IMG/VR virus record: IMGVR_UViG_3300015371_000011
Location: 1-64,000 of that record
Source of the DNA: a virus
Reading direction: 5' to 3' (one strand)
Length of the DNA: 64,000 nucleotides
The number at the start of each line of letters is the position of its first letter. The first letter of the stretch is position 1. Below, one piece after another: positions 1-60,914 of this stretch. Below the pieces are notes generated by a model that saw only the letters and a list, made by a program, of their open reading frames with translations, was not told the DNA's origin and ran no database searches. Both the position numbers and the translations under genes were made by a program.

Positions 1-720
1 AACTAAATTACCTTCAAGCAGTGCCAGCTTGCGTGTCGCCAATATCAGCTCTTCGCGCATTCCATCCGTGTTTCTAACCAATTCCTTAAAATGAAACGCC
101 ATAAAAAGCATGACTGCGCCGATCTCACTGGTAAAAAATTCGGTAGACGAACAGTCTTGCGACTCCATGATCGCATAGGTTGGCAATGGCGTTGGTGGTG
201 CAAATGCGATTGCGGTACGGAAGGCCCTGCTTACGGCAATCAACTGAAATCGGGCCAGAGCCAAAGCTGCGGCTGTCTCAAAAACGAAGTGTCGTCTGCG
301 CGATTGTTTAAGCAATGGAGAAACGGAGAACTGGACGGCATAACGAGAACGCACGGTTTCTGGGGACAGCCTGAATGGAACTCTTGGAACAGCGCAAAGG
401 GCCGATGCTATAGACCAACCGATATATCGTACAAAGACTACGGTGCCAGAGGCGTCCGCATGTGCAGCCGATGGCGCAATAGTTTTCCTGCCTTTATCGA
501 AGATATGGGGCCAATGCCGCCCCGTCCACCACGATATACCCTCGACCGCAAAGACAATGACGGCCATTATAGCTGCGGCAAGTGCGAAGAATGCGAAACT
601 AATCAATGGCCGATGAATTGCCGCTGGGCCACCTATAAAGAGCAAGCCAATAATCGCAGGAAGCGAAGATACTGGCGCGGTAGACCTGTTAAAGTTAAAG
701 AAACTCATAGGTAATGTCAT
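1..720 (-). CDS. Putative antisense bridge ORF over the HNH gene (at least 240 codons, runs off the window)
   Basis: ATG 720-718 overlaps the TGA (717-719) of the upstream gene. No stop in this frame down to position 1 (read by hand). Confidence 0.45.
   Translation of the reverse strand, partial: MTLPMSFFNFNRSTAPVSSLPAIIGLLFIGGPAAIHRPLISFAFFALAAAIMAVIVFAVEGISWWTGRHWPHIFDKGRKTIAPSAAHADASGTVVFVRYIGWSIASALCAVPRVPFRLSPETVRSRYAVQFSVSPLLKQSRRRHFVFETAAALALARFQLIAVSRAFRTAIAFAPPTPLPTYAIMESQDCSSTEFFTSEIGAVMLFMAFHFKELVRNTDGMREELILATRKLALLEGNLV
91..714 (+). CDS. HNH homing endonuclease with N-terminal Zn-ribbon, antisense to the operon
   Basis: DLTGKKFGR..WWCKCDCG..SCGC, YGARGV, TLDRKDNDGHY..NCRWAT..EQANNRR. 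Confidence 0.88.
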   Translation: MKRHKKHDCADLTGKKFGRRTVLRLHDRIGWQWRWWCKCDCGTEGPAYGNQLKSGQSQSCGCLKNEVSSARLFKQWRNGELDGITRTHGFWGQPEWNSWNSAKGRCYRPTDISYKDYGARGVRMCSRWRNSFPAFIEDMGPMPPRPPRYTLDRKDNDGHYSCGKCEECETNQWPMNCRWATYKEQANNRRKRRYWRGRPVKVKETHR

Positions 721-1022
721 CTAACTGTCTGATCTCGCTCGTAAAGGAAGCGCGGCACGCACTCGAATGTGTCTATCGGCATCCGTTTCCAATCAATCGG
801 TTTATCTATCGGTTGAGTCTGCATATACAGCGTGAGCTTCAGCTGGCACGCAATAACGTCATGTTCCTTGCTCCGTTCGATATGCTCATAAATTGTCAAT
901 CCGCCTAACGCCAGCATCACAATCAGCAGCGCAATACCGAGGGCGTCCTTCCCTGCCATCGAAAGCGTGCCGAGCTTTGTAGCAAGGCTAACCGTGCTCT
1001 TGTCGCCATCGCCGTCCGCCAT
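717..1022 (-). CDS. Small membrane protein (one TM helix)
   Basis: ALGIALLIVMLALGGLTIY; ATG at 1022 overlaps the upstream TAA. Confidence 0.7.
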   Translation of the reverse strand: MADGDGDKSTVSLATKLGTLSMAGKDALGIALLIVMLALGGLTIYEHIERSKEHDVIACQLKLTLYMQTQPIDKPIDWKRMPIDTFECVPRFLYERDQTVR

Positions 1023-1234
1023 TATACATTCACCGTCGCCGCAAAATCTTTTAGCCACTTAGGCTCATGCTTGTCGTGCTTCGCCTTCTGCATCTTCTCG
1101 ATCATTGCCGGGTCGATATTGCGCACCTTGCACACGCACCGCCTGCACAATCCTGTCGCGTTCTCCTCGCCCAGCGCGTGCTTGCACAGGCGGCATTTCA
1201 ACCAGACAGTATGGTGGCAATGCGGACACTTCAT
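1022..1234 (-). CDS. Cys-rich zinc-finger protein
   Basis: MKCPHC..CRLC..CRRC; ATGA overlap at 1231-1234. Confidence 0.65.
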   Translation of the reverse strand: MKCPHCHHTVWLKCRLCKHALGEENATGLCRRCVCKVRNIDPAMIEKMQKAKHDKHEPKWLKDFAATVNV

Positions 1235-1524
1235 TGGCACTTCTTGCCCTTGCCATGACACGACGGCGGTGGCGACGGCAGCGGTATCTGCGCCGTGTTG
1301 CTATAGGCGCTCGTCCCGTCACTGTTAAACGCATTCACACGGTAGCAGTCGCCCGGCTGCGACAAATCGTCCGTCCATGACGTCACGTCCACGCCCACCT
1401 GTAAGACTTCGTAAAAGCCGTCTGTGCAGTTACCCGAAATCGTTTTCTCTATGTTGAAACCCAATTCGTCATAGGAGTTGTCCTGCCATATCAGCGTTAT
1501 CGCCAATAAGAAAATTGCAAACAT
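1231..1524 (-). CDS. Small FN3-like protein with hydrophobic N-terminus
   Basis: LIWQDNSYDELGFNIEK..CYRVNAFNSDGTSAYSN. Confidence 0.75.
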   Translation of the reverse strand: MFAIFLLAITLIWQDNSYDELGFNIEKTISGNCTDGFYEVLQVGVDVTSWTDDLSQPGDCYRVNAFNSDGTSAYSNTAQIPLPSPPPSCHGKGKKCQ

Positions 1525-37727: not shown

Positions 37728-38374
37728 GCGAATTTTAGGACTTCTTGCGCCATGCGTTTGGCAGCTATCTCGCAATATTTCTCTTCTATCTCGATACCAA
37801 TAGCCTTGCGGCCCAAGTCCTTAGCGGCTCGCAATGTGGTTCCGCTGCCCATGAAGGGGTCAAGAATGGTTTCATCCTGCTGACAATAATTCGTCAAACA
37901 CCAATTCATCAATTTTAATGGCTTCTGCGTCGGATGGTCTCGTAGTGTCTCTTTGCCTAACAAACCATTCCATTCAATTGTTATTTTTTTTACAGACTTA
38001 CGATTGAATGAAGTCCAAGCTAATTCACAATCGCCAAAAGTTGGCATGGTGTTTAATTTATCCCAACTAATCCAATGGGTAGAGCGTGGCAACAAATCAG
38101 CAAAAAAATTACCGCCCCAAATAATAGCGTTTGATGCCATGTCTAAAATCATCAAAAAAATCTCTTGGCTAGGCCGTTCTGCGTCCCACGCATCAATGTA
38201 CTGGCGTCGCCTAATAGGCGTGCCAAAGCCGCCAAAGCCGTCAAAGCCGTGTGACATACTCACACCATACGGCGGATCAGTCAGCACTAAATCCACCGGC
38301 TCAAGCTGCAGCAGTATTTCTCTACAATCCCCATGAAATATCGTCACCGCATCGTCCTGGTAATAGGGTTTCAT
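37724..38374 (-). CDS. DNA methyltransferase (N6-mA, beta class)
   Basis: LTDPPY..HPTQKP..LDPFMGSGTT. Confidence 0.92.
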   Translation of the reverse strand: MKPYYQDDAVTIFHGDCREILLQLEPVDLVLTDPPYGVSMSHGFDGFGGFGTPIRRRQYIDAWDAERPSQEIFLMILDMASNAIIWGGNFFADLLPRSTHWISWDKLNTMPTFGDCELAWTSFNRKSVKKITIEWNGLLGKETLRDHPTQKPLKLMNWCLTNYCQQDETILDPFMGSGTTLRAAKDLGRKAIGIEIEEKYCEIAAKRMAQEVLKFA

Positions 38375-41355
38375 AGCAATAATATCTGCCCCGACTTGCG
38401 CCCGTAGAGCACGACTTCACGCGCAAACTTCTTCTTATCGCCGCCGTAATGCCACGGCGTGGGTATGCGCCACATCTGGTTTTCAATCACAGTGTCGTCG
38501 TACAGAAGCCCGCCCGTCTCGTCGTAGAATCCCGCCAAGTCATCGGCTGCCCTGAAAAATGTGGCCTCCTCTGGCCCCCAGTAAACCTCGCCGTACTCAG
38601 GCATGAGCGCCGCTATCGGCTCGCCACGCTCAAGCACGCCGTCAAGAATCTTATTGTACTCGGCCATCTCGTTGCGCCAGAAAGCGCCGTTGCTGTACAT
38701 AATCGCTTCGATGAATGTGCTCGGCATAATACCCTTGGTAAGCAAGTCCTGCAGGATAAAAATACCCAACTTTAGCCCGTGCAGCGCCATAAAAATCCAT
38801 GAAAAAATATTCATGCGCCGCCACTTGACTATGTCCATACTGCTCGTCTCGACAACCAAATCCTCATACTCGGCCAGATAACCATCGGCCCGTACCGTGC
38901 CGTGAATCTCGGCTAACTCTATACGCCGTGTGCGGATACCAAACTGCGCCTGATAGTCGGGCCGGCCCATCTCGGTATTAGGCAAGGCCATCAGCGGGTA
39001 GATAAACACCTGCCCACTCATGCCAGCCGCCACGATCTCGTCCAGCCCCTGCTTCCACGTCTCGTATGTCTCACCCGGCAGCCCGACAATAAATTCGCTA
39101 TATGTCGGCACGCCTTCGGCGTTGAAACGCTCCTGCAGCTTCTCGTAGGTAGACATTTTGATATTGCTGCGCTTGATATTCTGCAGCACCGTGGCGTTGT
39201 TGCTTTGGCGTGCGAGCGTGACGCTTTTAGACATGCCTGCGTCGGCTAGCATCTTGCCTACGGCGTAAACCTTGTCGTCGGTGTTCTTGCCGTAATTGAC
39301 GCGAAACCGCTGCGGATAGCCGTATTTCTCTTTGGTGGCTATCAGGTACTCGGCTATTTCACGGTCGCGTGCGAGCATGCCAAAATTCGACGCGCTCCCA
39401 AGTGCATACGGGATTTTATTACGCCCCAACCATTCAATCTCCGCAAATACTCGGTCTAGTCCATAGTAGCTCATCTTGTGTTGCCCAAGTCCATATTCGC
39501 AGAATGAACAATTTTCACAGAGCAACCCGTTAGCAAAAAAATTATGATTCGGCGTAGCTTCAACAATATCATAAACTCGCCGATGCTCGCTTGGCGAAAT
39601 CTCTTCTACTGCACACCAAGAAACCTTTGCAGTCGTTGCACCATCGCTTCGTTCAACTTGTCGTCGTTCCAAATCACAAAAATCTCCCAACCGAAATATT
39701 GATAATCTGCCGCTTCCATTTCCACGTCCTTTTCCTCTTGGTGCCAATAACGACCATGAGCGAGAATCGCTTTTCTTACTCCCTTTTTGCAGTGGATAAA
39801 ATCTGGATTGCGACAACCTCCCGATACTCCCGGCCCCAACCAAAATGTCCTGTCGCCAGTATATTTGAATGGCAGTTGATACTGTTGAAAAAATTTTATC
39901 AGCTTGCTCTCGAAACCATTCGGCGGCTCGCCAGCCTTTAAAAAATGAGCGGCATGCCATTGCGGATCGTTCCAATATTGCCGCATCTTTTGCTTCCACG
40001 ATTCGATCATTTGCTTGTGCTTGATTGGATCTAACCGTCGCATCGGATTGTTGTCGCCAGTTTGCCATGCGTAACCGAGCCTCTTGCTTGTTTCCACCCC
40101 TTTCCTCGCATGTGCTAGTCGTTGTTCTCGACTCATTCGCCGCATTGGACTGTTGTCGCCAGTGAATTTCAGGTAGTGCCCCATTGCTCGTTGCGTTGCT
40201 ACCACCTTCGCTACGTGTTCTGGCGATTTCTTTATTCCCTTGTTCATACCCGGATGTCTGTAGAGACCCGCTGCTGCTGCCCTCTTTATCCCCTCTATTC
40301 GCCGCTCTTCGCCTCCGCTTTGCTTCCGACTTGCTGCAGCTTTGATTCCCCGGAGTCTTTGCACTTCCAACGGAGTCGTTAATACTCTCTGTCTCAAGTG
40401 CGGCAGATAGCACCCCATCGAACAATACATCCTCTCTTTTGGCCGATGATCTATCGACGTTCCACAACCCTTGCAAAATCTTGTCGCCGACTTTAAGGTC
40501 GCCTGCTGTAACCCATCCCCTGTCGGTGTAAAAAGGATGATCTCTAGTTGCTCCAATTTCAGAACCTCCCGCTACTATCTTGATGGTTTCCTTAATGCCG
40601 CTACAAATCGAAAATGCGACTCTATTCCACGCAAGGCATTCGTCTTTCTCATTCCAACCTAAAATATAATCACCGGACTGCACTGCTTCTATATTTTTTT
40701 GCCCTGTTTGAGTAACTACCACCGTTCCTTCCGCGAGACACATAAATGGGCATCCGCGATCCTGCTCCAAGACGTAGCTATACTCTATTGGCTCTGGATG
40801 CTGCTCCAATAACCCGTCAAATAAGCCGGTCAACGCGGGCGACGGCAATTCATTCAACTCTTTCTGAAACGGATAATCCTGAGCGCAGTAGTGCACATCA
40901 TTGTCTCGATACGTTATCTGCGGGATACCTTCAAAGTCCGTGCTGTGAGTTTCCGCCCAACGCTTTAATACGGCAGTAAACGCCTGCTCACCCGCGCGTC
41001 TGACAGCTACGTCGATAAATGGATGCTTGGATAAATACTCAATGGCGTTATCGGGCACCTGCAATCCACCAAACACAATCAGGCACTCAGGCCAACGGCG
41101 TTTCACTTCGGCGGCTACTGCCAGGTTTAATTGCTCATTCCACACCGCCACAGAGAAAGCCGCCACGTCCACACGGTTGTCATAGTGCTTGAGAATATTG
41201 GCCGGCTTATCCACGCAGTAAAGAAAATCGCCAAACTCGTAATTGGCCTTGATGTCGTCATTCTGCTCGGCATAGGCGCGCAGCAATCCCGTAGCCAGCG
41301 GCAAGTAGCAGTTGCGGCCGAGCCTGATGTTATATTCGTTTAGGACTACGCGCAT
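38371..41355 (-). CDS. B12-binding radical SAM enzyme with an intein inside the CxxxCxxC motif
   Basis: RGCPFM|intein|CSFC; IVGLPGETYETW. Confidence 0.88.
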   Translation of the reverse strand: MRVVLNEYNIRLGRNCYLPLATGLLRAYAEQNDDIKANYEFGDFLYCVDKPANILKHYDNRVDVAAFSVAVWNEQLNLAVAAEVKRRWPECLIVFGGLQVPDNAIEYLSKHPFIDVAVRRAGEQAFTAVLKRWAETHSTDFEGIPQITYRDNDVHYCAQDYPFQKELNELPSPALTGLFDGLLEQHPEPIEYSYVLEQDRGCPFMCLAEGTVVVTQTGQKNIEAVQSGDYILGWNEKDECLAWNRVAFSICSGIKETIKIVAGGSEIGATRDHPFYTDRGWVTAGDLKVGDKILQGLWNVDRSSAKREDVLFDGVLSAALETESINDSVGSAKTPGNQSCSKSEAKRRRRAANRGDKEGSSSGSLQTSGYEQGNKEIARTRSEGGSNATSNGALPEIHWRQQSNAANESRTTTSTCEERGGNKQEARLRMANWRQQSDATVRSNQAQANDRIVEAKDAAILERSAMACRSFFKGWRAAEWFREQADKIFSTVSTAIQIYWRQDILVGAGSIGRLSQSRFYPLQKGSKKSDSRSWSLLAPRGKGRGNGSGRLSIFRLGDFCDLERRQVERSDGATTAKVSWCAVEEISPSEHRRVYDIVEATPNHNFFANGLLCENCSFCEYGLGQHKMSYYGLDRVFAEIEWLGRNKIPYALGSASNFGMLARDREIAEYLIATKEKYGYPQRFRVNYGKNTDDKVYAVGKMLADAGMSKSVTLARQSNNATVLQNIKRSNIKMSTYEKLQERFNAEGVPTYSEFIVGLPGETYETWKQGLDEIVAAGMSGQVFIYPLMALPNTEMGRPDYQAQFGIRTRRIELAEIHGTVRADGYLAEYEDLVVETSSMDIVKWRRMNIFSWIFMALHGLKLGIFILQDLLTKGIMPSTFIEAIMYSNGAFWRNEMAEYNKILDGVLERGEPIAALMPEYGEVYWGPEEATFFRAADDLAGFYDETGGLLYDDTVIENQMWRIPTPWHYGGDKKKFAREVVLYGRKSGQILLL
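39511..40740 (-). mobile_element. Intein (410 aa)
   Basis: CLAEGTVV..TRDHPFY..GW..LKVGD..VYDI..HNFFANGLLCEN|C. Confidence 0.88.
39606..40556 (-). CDS. Out-of-frame endonuclease nested in the intein (Zn-finger, NUMOD3-like repeats, Vsr/DUF559-like nuclease); true start uncertain
   Basis: CKGCG..YCSMGC; NKGIKKSPEH; TGDNSPMRR/TGDNNPMRR; PNGFE..FKYTG..NPDFI..HGRYWH..IWNDD. Confidence 0.8.
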   Translation of the reverse strand: MEQLEIILFTPTGDGLQQATLKSATRFCKGCGTSIDHRPKERMYCSMGCYLPHLRQRVLTTPLEVQRLRGIKAAASRKQSGGEERRIEGIKRAAAAGLYRHPGMNKGIKKSPEHVAKVVATQRAMGHYLKFTGDNSPMRRMSREQRLAHARKGVETSKRLGYAWQTGDNNPMRRLDPIKHKQMIESWKQKMRQYWNDPQWHAAHFLKAGEPPNGFESKLIKFFQQYQLPFKYTGDRTFWLGPGVSGGCRNPDFIHCKKGVRKAILAHGRYWHQEEKDVEMEAADYQYFGWEIFVIWNDDKLNEAMVQRLQRFLGVQ

Positions 41356-59391: not shown

Positions 59392-59435
59392 TTGAATAAT
59401 CCTTTGACTAAATAATCGTTGTTATATAAATTCAC
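59388..59435 (-). CDS. 15-aa coupling mini-ORF
   Basis: GTG overlaps the TGA at 59432; its own TGA overlaps the TTG start at 59391. Confidence 0.4.
   Translation of the reverse strand: MNLYNNDYLVKGLFN
59404..59432 (+). promoter_or_regulatory. Sigma70-like promoter for the HNH gene, near-leaderless
   Basis: TTGACT-17-TAAATT; ATG 8 nt downstream. Confidence 0.55.
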
Positions 59436-60133
59436 CCCATATGCCATTTGCTAAAGGTCTTTACCGCACACCCATAGAAGAACGATTCAAACGTTTCTGG
59501 GATAAGATGGAAAAACCTGATGATGGCTGTTGGATTTGGCCTGGAAGCAAAGCTGCTGGCTACGGTACTATTTTTGTTGAATATAGAACTAAACATGCCA
59601 CGATGATGAAGGCACACAGATTGTCTTACATGATTCATGTCGGAGCGATTCCACCCGATAAAGAAATTTGCCACAGTTGCGATACCCCACCATGCATACG
59701 TCCTTCCCATCTTTTTCTTGGTACTCATCAAGACAATATTGCGGATGCCAAGCGGAAAGGTCGCATGGCTCATATCGGTCAAAATTCTCCACGTGGCGAG
59801 AATCATCCAACGAGCAAATTGACACAAAATGCCATCAAAGAAATTCGTGCTACTTATGCCGCTGGTGATACTAGCATGAGTACTCTCGGTCAACGATTTG
59901 GTGTTTCCGCTTCTCTTATTTATCACATTGTACGAAACCATCGTTGGAAAGATGTTATCGCTACCGATGCGAGAATGGTTAATCGCGCTAGAAGAACCTC
60001 CGTAGATATAATGAAAGAAATTCAAGAAAGATATTTGGCTGGCGAAACACCTACCCAATTGGGTAAGATTTATAACCTTACTCGTGGCCGTGTTTGGGGT
60101 ATTGGGCATGGCAGATTTAAAAGTTAGCTTCAT
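59432..60133 (-). CDS. Putative antisense bridge ORF (233 aa) over the HNH gene
   Basis: ATGA overlap with the upstream tail gene; codon-aligned with the HNH gene and stop-free. Confidence 0.45.
   Translation of the reverse strand: MKLTFKSAMPNTPNTATSKVINLTQLGRCFASQISFLNFFHYIYGGSSSAINHSRIGSDNIFPTMVSYNVINKRSGNTKSLTESTHASITSGISSTNFFDGILCQFARWMILATWRILTDMSHATFPLGIRNIVLMSTKKKMGRTYAWWGIATVANFFIGWNRSDMNHVRQSVCLHHRGMFSSIFNKNSTVASSFASRPNPTAIIRFFHLIPETFESFFYGCAVKTFSKWHMG
59441..60127 (+). CDS. HNH homing endonuclease with C-terminal HTH domains, antisense to the operon
   Basis: CWIWPG..GYG..AHRLSY..CHSCDTPPCIRPSHLFLGTHQDN..KLTQ; AT-rich. Confidence 0.92.
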   Translation: MPFAKGLYRTPIEERFKRFWDKMEKPDDGCWIWPGSKAAGYGTIFVEYRTKHATMMKAHRLSYMIHVGAIPPDKEICHSCDTPPCIRPSHLFLGTHQDNIADAKRKGRMAHIGQNSPRGENHPTSKLTQNAIKEIRATYAAGDTSMSTLGQRFGVSASLIYHIVRNHRWKDVIATDARMVNRARRTSVDIMKEIQERYLAGETPTQLGKIYNLTRGRVWGIGHGRFKS

Positions 60134-60693
60134 GGCACCAGCGCATTCTCCGTCAACGTGAATTGCGTCTTGTAAACATTACGCGCAATTTGCTCCATCT
60201 TCAGTCCATTCGGATCAAAATTGACAAGATAATTGCACGCCCACTTGGCATATATCTCCTGCCCCGATGACGGTGCCGTACCGAAATCCACCTGCCCCCA
60301 GGTGCGCAGCGTATAGTCGGTGGTAATGGATGTGACGCCCGTATCGGTTGTGAGCATGCGTGCCGAGAAAGAGCTGGCATTCAGGTTTCTATTCGGTAGG
60401 TAGTATGCCGTTGAGCGGCCATCGGCCACGCCAATCAGGCAGTAATTCTCTACCGCGCCAAACTCGCCGCCGTTCCAGTAAAATGGCGTTGCGCCTTGAT
60501 GATAGGCATGCAGCCCTTGCAACTCCTGCATGTGGCTGCGGCTAATGGCGTCGTAGGTAAGCGTGAATCTATACATCGGCCTGCGTGCGCGATTACTGAG
60601 TTGAAACGCCGTCACGTAGTCGGTAAGCACCGAGAATGTCATGGCTTCGCGCGTAAGCGCGTTTGGCGTGAATGAAAGCGTGAGCGGTATCAT
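60130..60693 (-). CDS. Distal tail protein-like (DUF2460-like), paralog 3
   Basis: RPMYRFTLTY..HQGATPFYWNGG..ADG..YYLPNRN..FGTAPSSG. Confidence 0.75.
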   Translation of the reverse strand: MIPLTLSFTPNALTREAMTFSVLTDYVTAFQLSNRARRPMYRFTLTYDAISRSHMQELQGLHAYHQGATPFYWNGGEFGAVENYCLIGVADGRSTAYYLPNRNLNASSFSARMLTTDTGVTSITTDYTLRTWGQVDFGTAPSSGQEIYAKWACNYLVNFDPNGLKMEQIARNVYKTQFTLTENALVP

Positions 60694-60914
60694 GGAGCGT
60701 CCACCCGCCAATCATAGCGGCCGCCGCCGCTGTCAATCTGTGTGCTGAATCGTATCGTCACGGCATTTGTTGACTTGCTGTACACCCATACCGTCGTATT
60801 CCAGCTAGGCGAAATGCCCGTCACGGCCACGCTGTTAGACGCCAGCGCGTGCGAGAATGAGCTGATGCTGGTGCCACTGCCGCAGCTTACCGTGCCGAAT
60901 ACCGTGGTTGTCAT
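60690..60914 (-). CDS. Small beta-rich tail-associated protein
   Basis: Resembles the C-terminus of 60911..62068 (WNTT.W..SK..F.T..GG..DW). Confidence 0.65.
   Translation of the reverse strand: MTTTVFGTVSCGSGTSISSFSHALASNSVAVTGISPSWNTTVWVYSKSTNAVTIRFSTQIDSGGGRYDWRVDAP

Follow-up and report, generated by a model that had tools for sequence, protein, structure and literature searches.

Can a mobile gene lie backwards in an operon, even inside one of its genes, and still let the ribosomes of the host strand pass? This question is raised by the beginning of a virus record from rhizosphere metagenomes, IMGVR_UViG_3300015371_000011, of which positions 1-64,000 constitute the stretch of DNA analysed here (64,000 nucleotides, in the following referred to as the window; the record starts at window base 1). 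Homing endonuclease genes persist in introns, in inteins or between genes. In this phage an HNH-type endonuclease gene on the plus strand, at 91-714 (207 codons plus TAA; in the following copy 1), points against an operon of minus-strand genes, and the strand opposite to it is free of stop codons in the one frame that is codon-aligned with it. We infer, with a probability of about 60%, that this open frame is translated to the benefit of the operon, keeping ribosomes on the operon RNA and delivering them to the next gene downstream, here called g3.

The endonuclease gene and the frame opposite to it

The record measures 81,479 bp and carries a 123-bp terminal repeat, which gives an 81,356-bp circle with a guanine plus cytosine (GC) content of 0.52 and with minus-strand open reading frames (ORFs) over ~91% of its length; positions outside the window are given below as genome positions. 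Copy 1 matches phrog_374 ('HNH endonuclease') over residues 11-194 with an expectation value (E) of 1.3e-45, as well as three further PHROGs of HNH or restriction-endonuclease type, while neither Pfam (at E <= 0.1) nor the PDB sequences gave a match. The protein database holds 1787 relatives at E <= 1e-5, the closest of them 68% identical, and scans of viral and metagenome sequences with copy 1 reached identities of at most 45-52%. The protein keeps every invariant residue of a 67-sequence family alignment, and its homology to the family begins at residue 11 (DLTG...). Copy 1 is classed on these grounds as a free-standing gene of the HNH homing-endonuclease type, homing itself being predicted.

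A preliminary description, made from the letters of the window, had claimed that copy 1 contains no TTA, CTA or TCA codon, that the codon-aligned minus frame is open from an ATG at 720 to the window edge, and that this ATG overlaps the stop of the preceding operon gene. All of this holds. Copy 1 has 8 Leu and 11 Ser codons, none of them TTA, CTA or TCA; the antisense ORF starts with ATG at 720-718 and runs open through base 1 (1-720, minus strand), and because its third codon (TTA) lies exactly opposite the HNH stop, the two frames are codon-aligned. In the remaining two antisense frames over copy 1 there are 8 and 7 stops. The preceding gene, here called g1, ends with a TGA at 719-717, which forms an ATGA junction (717-720, minus strand) with the antisense ATG. 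The same description had proposed an extension of the contig, and on the circle the antisense ORF crosses the record origin and ends after 261 codons at a TGA at genome 81293-81291, its end overlapping the next minus-strand gene by 11 nucleotides (nt). That gene, g3 (genome 80939-81304, minus strand, just ahead of the window start), has a TTG start, which the TGA has passed, and its AGGAG ribosome-binding site lies within the last codons of the antisense ORF. For the antisense ORF neither Pfam nor the PHROGs gave a family.

The operon thus traversed reads, on the minus strand, as a gene of 79 amino acids (aa), a TAATG overlap, g1, the ATGA overlap, the gene here called g2, and g3, with tight coupling at each junction. 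A terminator scan revealed no minus-strand terminator-like site in the region. The minus-strand RNA of the insert (window 116-715) has a purine fraction of 0.432 against a genome mean of 0.536 (0.1 percentile), and no other 600-nt stretch of the genome is as poor in purines; its C/G ratio of 1.16 lies at the 98.6th percentile. Purine richness has been tied to protection from premature termination in a recent account (PMC13323073). Judged by composition, the RNA of the insert fits a good Rho substrate, on which Rho could act if it were left untranslated.

The stop-free state of copy 1 is unlikely to be a product of chance. Given its amino acids, the probability of no aligned antisense stop is ~0.011 under the Leu/Ser codon use of the genome, 0.06 under a pseudocounted estimate based on the flanks, and 0.004 when the expectation is taken from the frequency of A-ending codons in the other codon families of the gene itself.

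Insertion inside a host gene

The gene g1 (717-1022, minus strand) is complete, encodes 101 aa with one hydrophobic stretch, and begins with the ATG of the TAATG overlap. Its homologues number nine (97-113 aa, 53-68% identity), and a scan with their alignment located three related viral loci (L201, L202 and L203). In all three, g1 is followed directly by an intact g2 of 101-110 aa, without an HNH gene between them, so that the presence of the endonuclease is sporadic; in L202 the two genes share four bases, and in L201 a gap of 3 nt separates them. In the intact g2 a single membrane segment, near residues 36-57, precedes a conserved C-terminal part.

The last 62 codons of the antisense ORF are homologous to g2 residues ~50-104. 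Of this surviving 3' half, ORF residues 200-240 lie in the window (1-123, minus strand) and the other 21 codons at genome 81356-81294. Identity to L201 is 58% over 57 aa (residues 50-104), to L203 47% and to L202 41%, and the g2 homologues P0156 and P0167 of the database are 58-60% identical; the tail carries the conserved C-terminal motif of g2, NTDGM...ATRKLAL.EGN..GR, and is conserved to about the same degree as the intact g1 is against its own homologues. By contrast, nothing that corresponds to the first ~49 codons of g2, with most of the membrane segment, is present in the region, whichever frame is read, and the span that they would fill is now occupied by the antisense of the HNH gene. 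As the tail is homologous to g2 and the 5' half lacks a counterpart, it follows from the comparison that the inverted HNH gene replaced the 5' half of g2, and that the antisense frame joins the g2 start position in frame to the g2 3' half; for a random insertion, the fit of the frame to the tail and that to the ATG would each have a probability of ~1 in 3. Two other derivations were rejected: g1 cannot once have run on into the tail, given that its homologues all share its C-terminal end, and the N-terminus of the antisense ORF gave no significant alignment to that of g2.

The two genes share the sequence of their junction. At 91-123, HNH codons 1-11, the ATG included, lie antisense to sequence that derives from g2 (the end of its membrane segment). 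Because these codons derive from g2 and homology to the endonuclease family sets in at residue 11, the foreign segment is little more than the conserved HNH frame, roughly window 124-716.

None of g1, g2, g3 and the tail could be assigned to a family of Pfam or the PHROGs. At its N-terminus the g3 product has a signal peptide as well as a lipobox-like LSSTGC. A few genes downstream of g2, the relative L203 has one lipoprotein-like and one cell-wall-hydrolase-like gene. Although no family match supports it, g1, g2 and g3 may perhaps be part of a lysis or envelope cassette.

Open antisense frames in the endonuclease family

A hidden Markov model of the family was built from the database relatives of copy 1, and every full-length member was sought in 80 viral loci plus metagenome loci. 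Members were classed by the strand of the nearest long ORFs on both sides as backward, as forward, or as lying at a boundary of transcription units; counts refer to clusters at 80% identity, with the window's own copy excluded. In the first sample the aligned antisense frame was open in 13 of 28 backward copies, where 3.48 were expected (P = 2e-6), against 4 of 34 forward copies (3.47 expected) and 3 of 31 boundary copies (4.45 expected). The remaining two antisense frames were open in none of the copies, and in the open backward copies they carry 4-17 stops. The excess persisted with one copy per phage locus (9/23 backward copies open, P = 7e-4), with two neighbours demanded on each side (7/12 backward versus 1/20 forward) and at a GC content below 0.56 (10/16 versus 1/37 open). 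A second sample, seeded on a low-GC forward member, added 62 new clusters; 0/32 of its forward and 1/15 of its boundary copies were open, and its backward copies are discussed below.

Combined, the 149 non-redundant members of other phages give the comparison of antisense- and sense-oriented HNH genes that the preliminary description had suggested, and its outcome agrees with that proposal: 15 of 39 backward copies (38%) are open against 4.85 expected (P = 1e-5), while forward copies (4/66; 3.94 expected) and boundary copies (4/44; 5.19 expected) stay at expectation (8/110 together; Fisher test against backward copies, 1.9e-5). Below a GC content of 0.56 the figures are 11/23 for backward and 2/78 for forward plus boundary copies. 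The stop-free habit is real and orientation-specific, and it is limited to a subset of the backward copies. The open copies do not form one clade, since they are mutually 32-54% identical and their nearest kin often have antisense stops, and composition does not explain the missing stops, because the open genes show no shortage of A-ending codons in the other codon families. Five loci with open backward copies were mapped, and the inserts lie there within long colinear operons; in four loci of uncultivated phages (L127, L176, L144 and L185) one operon harbours two different backward HNH genes of the family, both antisense-open. Among cultured phages the family occurs in 485 GenBank records, nine of which were inspected; none of the nine has a backward copy inside an operon, and in three of these phages the family members are same-strand domains inside polymerase or reductase genes.

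Antisense frames of this kind have entered the public databases as proteins. When public proteins were searched by HMMER with that part of the antisense ORF which lies in the window, 72 'proteins' matched; by tblastn, 65 of them fall on HNH genes of the surveyed loci, in antisense and codon-aligned. The set is biased by ascertainment, as a protein database can show open frames only. One entry, P0133, is identical to residues 52-261 of the antisense ORF, while the HNH protein of the same genome is not in the database; a word-based search with the antisense ORF had this protein of the window itself as its sole match. The closest other antisense ORFs, P0134 (245 aa) and P0135 (232 aa), are 44-48% identical and open over ~195 residues. 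They start with M-T-L and M-I-L, and the ORF over copy 1 with M-T-L, where the HNH stop read in antisense gives the L. These protein sequences suggest the same geometry, and as their tails bear no relation to g2, the genomic contexts would be others. An antisense start codon within 12 nt of the HNH stop is present in 8/13 open backward copies versus 24/96 other copies, and open antisense frames are more frequent among the nearest relatives of copy 1. From these sequences the open-frame trait looks partly heritable within the endonuclease lineage.

A second reverse endonuclease gene and the setting of the phage

A further HNH gene of the window, copy 2 (59441-60127, plus strand), is of the HNH_3 type and unrelated to copy 1 (PF13392, E = 7e-9; phrog_59, E = 3e-29). 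It is likewise covered by an antisense ORF (59432-60133, minus strand, 233 codons), which has an ATGA overlap with the stop of the gene at 60130-60711. With the HNH end at 60127, the host TGA at 60132-60130 and the ATG at 60133-60131, its coordinates bear out the earlier claim that the geometry at the second HNH gene is identical. Copy 2 contains no TTA, CTA or TCA codon, whereas 5.7 would be predicted by the frequency of A-ending codons in the gene (probability of zero, 1e-4), and the joint probability that copies 1 and 2 are both open is ~5e-5 by genome codon use. Copy 2 is AT-rich (GC 0.33 at third codon positions; GC 0.43 overall versus 0.52 in the genome), and this low GC content suggests a recent arrival that was stop-free beforehand. 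The gene upstream of copy 2 had no match in L201-L203, and a scan with the single protein of copy 2 yielded one locus of its family. Among 50 viral records searched with PF13392, 1/3 backward and 1/10 forward copies were open (the latter at a GC content of 0.67), numbers that are too small to use. The purine fraction of the minus-strand RNA of copy 2 lies at the 2.6th percentile.

Pieces identical to window 1-1300 occur in four rhizosphere DNA runs (2012, 2016) with zero variant letters, and the phage, its HNH insert included, is stable in the rhizosphere habitat. Neither an insert-free joint nor an insert-free form of the phage was seen in those metagenome DNA runs and contigs. Close relatives of the phage were sought by megablast against GenBank phages, which gave no match, and a tail-fibre-like neighbour used as scan query gave distant matches only. 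Elsewhere in the window, a 994-aa ORF (38371-41355, minus strand) contains a 316-aa ORF (39606-40556) in another frame of the same strand.

Proposed mechanism and rival explanations

We propose that the HNH gene was inserted backwards into the 5' half of g2 within the coupled minus-strand operon. Since copy 1 lacks the three codons that would read as antisense stops, ribosomes finishing g1 could restart at the overlapping ATG and cross the insert; they would read 197 antisense codons, continue in frame through the 62-codon 3' half of g2, and stop at the g2 TGA. This stop follows closely on the ribosome-binding site and the TTG of g3, and coupling into g3 would be preserved. The benefit would consist in operon continuity, in that no long naked stretch of C-rich, purine-poor RNA would be left to Rho or RNases. 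The orientation-dependent and frame-specific absence of stops would be hard to explain unless ribosomes read the antisense frame. In copy 1 the frame may also keep the conserved C-terminal domain of g2 expressed. The preliminary description had interpreted the antisense ORF as a bridge that keeps the operon covered by ribosomes; this is supported in part, in that the lack of antisense stops depends on orientation and is very unlikely to be chance, and it falls short in that the ORF is more than a bridge, being a chimera of the g2 start position, the antisense of the HNH gene and the g2 3' half.

Several observations weigh against or limit the proposal that the open frame serves operon continuity. 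No strong Shine-Dalgarno sequence precedes the ATG of the antisense ORF. For copy 1 itself, a promoter scan gave no promoter-like (sigma-70-like) site, nor was a clear ribosome-binding site seen. The in-frame join to the g2 tail is a coincidence of 1 in 3, and if the insertion is recent, the conservation of the tail says nothing about its present function. In a third reverse endonuclease gene of the genome (genome 69628-70479, plus strand, outside the window; phrog_4645, E = 2e-32), which has minus-strand genes on both sides, the aligned antisense frame is broken by 6 stops; three overlapping minus-strand ORFs span 89% of the gene, which 9% of control windows match, so that it is not clearly bridged. 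In the survey the orientation of neighbours was inferred from the longest ORFs and not from curated annotation, and the second sample was weak (backward copies 2/11 open versus 1.37 expected; Fisher test, 0.09), from which it follows that the habit belongs to a subset of copies. Finally, the phage was not found in any RNA sequencing run.

If the protein product were what matters, the 261-aa chimera would be a working g2 in which antisense-coded hydrophobic segments replace the lost membrane anchor. The ORF does end at the native g2 stop, its tail holds the most conserved motif of g2 at an identity like that of intact g1, and its residues 39-57 (window 550-606, minus strand) form a strongly hydrophobic segment of 19 residues (Kyte-Doolittle 2.77) at the same N-terminal distance as the membrane segment of g2 in L201. 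This segment is encoded by the reverse complement of the conserved core motif of the HNH gene (KDNDGHYSCGKCEEC...). However, ~140 antisense-coded residues lie between it and the tail, no family or known fold is assigned to the product, and P0134 and P0135 lack the g2 tail. Moreover, the habit recurs in unrelated HNH families, between genes and without any host part (copy 2 and other loci), and therefore points to a generic role of translatability and against a specific protein. We regard a working chimera as unlikely. A combination of chance and history has also to be considered, in which a recent inverted insertion was by luck both stop-free and in frame, the ATGA being the old g2 start and the tail a remnant not yet decayed. 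Just 19 Leu and Ser codons are involved, the flank-based estimate gives P = 0.06, the fit of frame to tail is 1 in 3, the insert-free L202 has the four-base overlap of g1 and g2, and both the stops in the third reverse endonuclease gene and the weak second sample would be expected. Against this stand the two unrelated backward HNH genes that are both open (improbable jointly, and each by its own composition), the orientation-specific excess in the family, and the recurrence of the open frame and of the M-x-L start in diverged relatives. The earlier remark that one such case could be chance is thus not favoured, with 0.004-0.06 for copy 1 and P = 1e-5 for the family, and we consider luck followed by slow decay quite improbable.

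The overlap could also be a case of overprinting, with the HNH gene a dead relic and the minus-strand ORF the sole functional gene at this place. This would explain the choice of the gene callers, by which the public set holds part of the antisense ORF (P0133) and not the HNH protein, and would agree with the missing promoter and ribosome-binding site of copy 1. But gene callers simply favour the longer ORF, and the HNH frame is intact over 207 codons, with all family-invariant residues and E = 1e-45 against the family; such a relic is very improbable. Even harder to credit is a cause on the sense side, namely that avoidance of rare codons or tRNAs, or strand composition, removed TTA, CTA and TCA. 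Forward copies do under-use the three codons as well (182 observed versus 221 expected under the A-ending null), yet forward and boundary copies are open at the chance rate only, the same trinucleotides are common out of frame (hence the 4-17 stops of the other antisense frames), and A-ending codons are freely used in other codon families.

Operon continuity, the reading that we prefer, could be extended to a bolder one. Some homing-endonuclease lineages would carry a heritable antisense 'pass-through' frame, with a start codon right after their own stop, that lets them settle backwards in operons or inside host genes; introns and inteins would then be joined by a third way of sparing the host, and the product over copy 1 would be a working chimeric membrane protein with an antisense-encoded anchor. 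We offer this extension tentatively, with the odds against it.

Relation to known systems and significance

Inteins and group I introns allow a homing endonuclease gene to sit inside a host gene without breaking its expression. They are inserts on the same strand, removed by RNA or protein splicing, whereas the endonuclease of copy 1 is on the other strand, splicing blocks are absent, and a read-through product would keep the extra residues. An intein or an in-frame endonuclease insertion was rejected as an interpretation of the locus, the endonuclease being on the opposite strand and the host-strand translation having no match in Pfam or the PHROGs. Systems of translational coupling and Rho polarity resemble the locus in their successive stop/start overlaps and in an RNA composition that would favour Rho if untranslated; unlike in the usual coupling, the partner ORF has no homology of its own and is enabled by the codon choice of a gene on the opposite strand. 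Antisense overprinting likewise involves two long codon-aligned ORFs on opposite strands, but the antisense ORFs found here have no conserved family beyond what the HNH sequence imposes.

The free-standing mob and seg genes of T4-type phages offer a further comparison. According to a review an invading endonuclease must fit the transcription programme of its host to persist, stop/start overlaps such as UAAUGA at nrdA/mobE occur, and antisense is mentioned only as a possible problem, with no antisense frame described (PMC2988022). Like the T4-type genes described there, copy 1 is a small HNH gene within a polycistronic unit, absent from the corresponding site of relatives and apparently without a promoter of its own; unlike them, integrated as they are into existing host transcription units, it lies backwards, and its host-sparing feature is an open frame on the opposite strand (PMC2988022). 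As with Aeh1 mobE in nrdA and T4 mobA in a topoisomerase gene, a free-standing endonuclease gene is found inside a host coding region, but those host genes are now translated as two separate pieces (PMC2988022), whereas at copy 1 a single host-strand frame crosses the inverted insert and the host gene has lost its 5' half. In full-text literature searches no account of endonuclease genes with stop-free antisense frames came up. While the endonuclease, the coupling of translation and polarity are known individually, their combination is new, namely a backward mobile gene shaped for the host frame to run through, in this case inside a host gene. Such a pass-through frame may represent a novel means by which mobile genes spare the operons of their hosts.

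For annotation, the consequence is that gene callers favour the longer antisense ORF and leave the endonuclease unannotated, so that at least 65 public clusters for the HNH family of copy 1 are annotation artefacts. For the biology of these phages, the proposed function of the open frame would, if true, mean that a selfish gene is shaped by selection on a strand that it does not encode, and it would make the dependence of operon integrity on translation measurable in phages from sequence alone.

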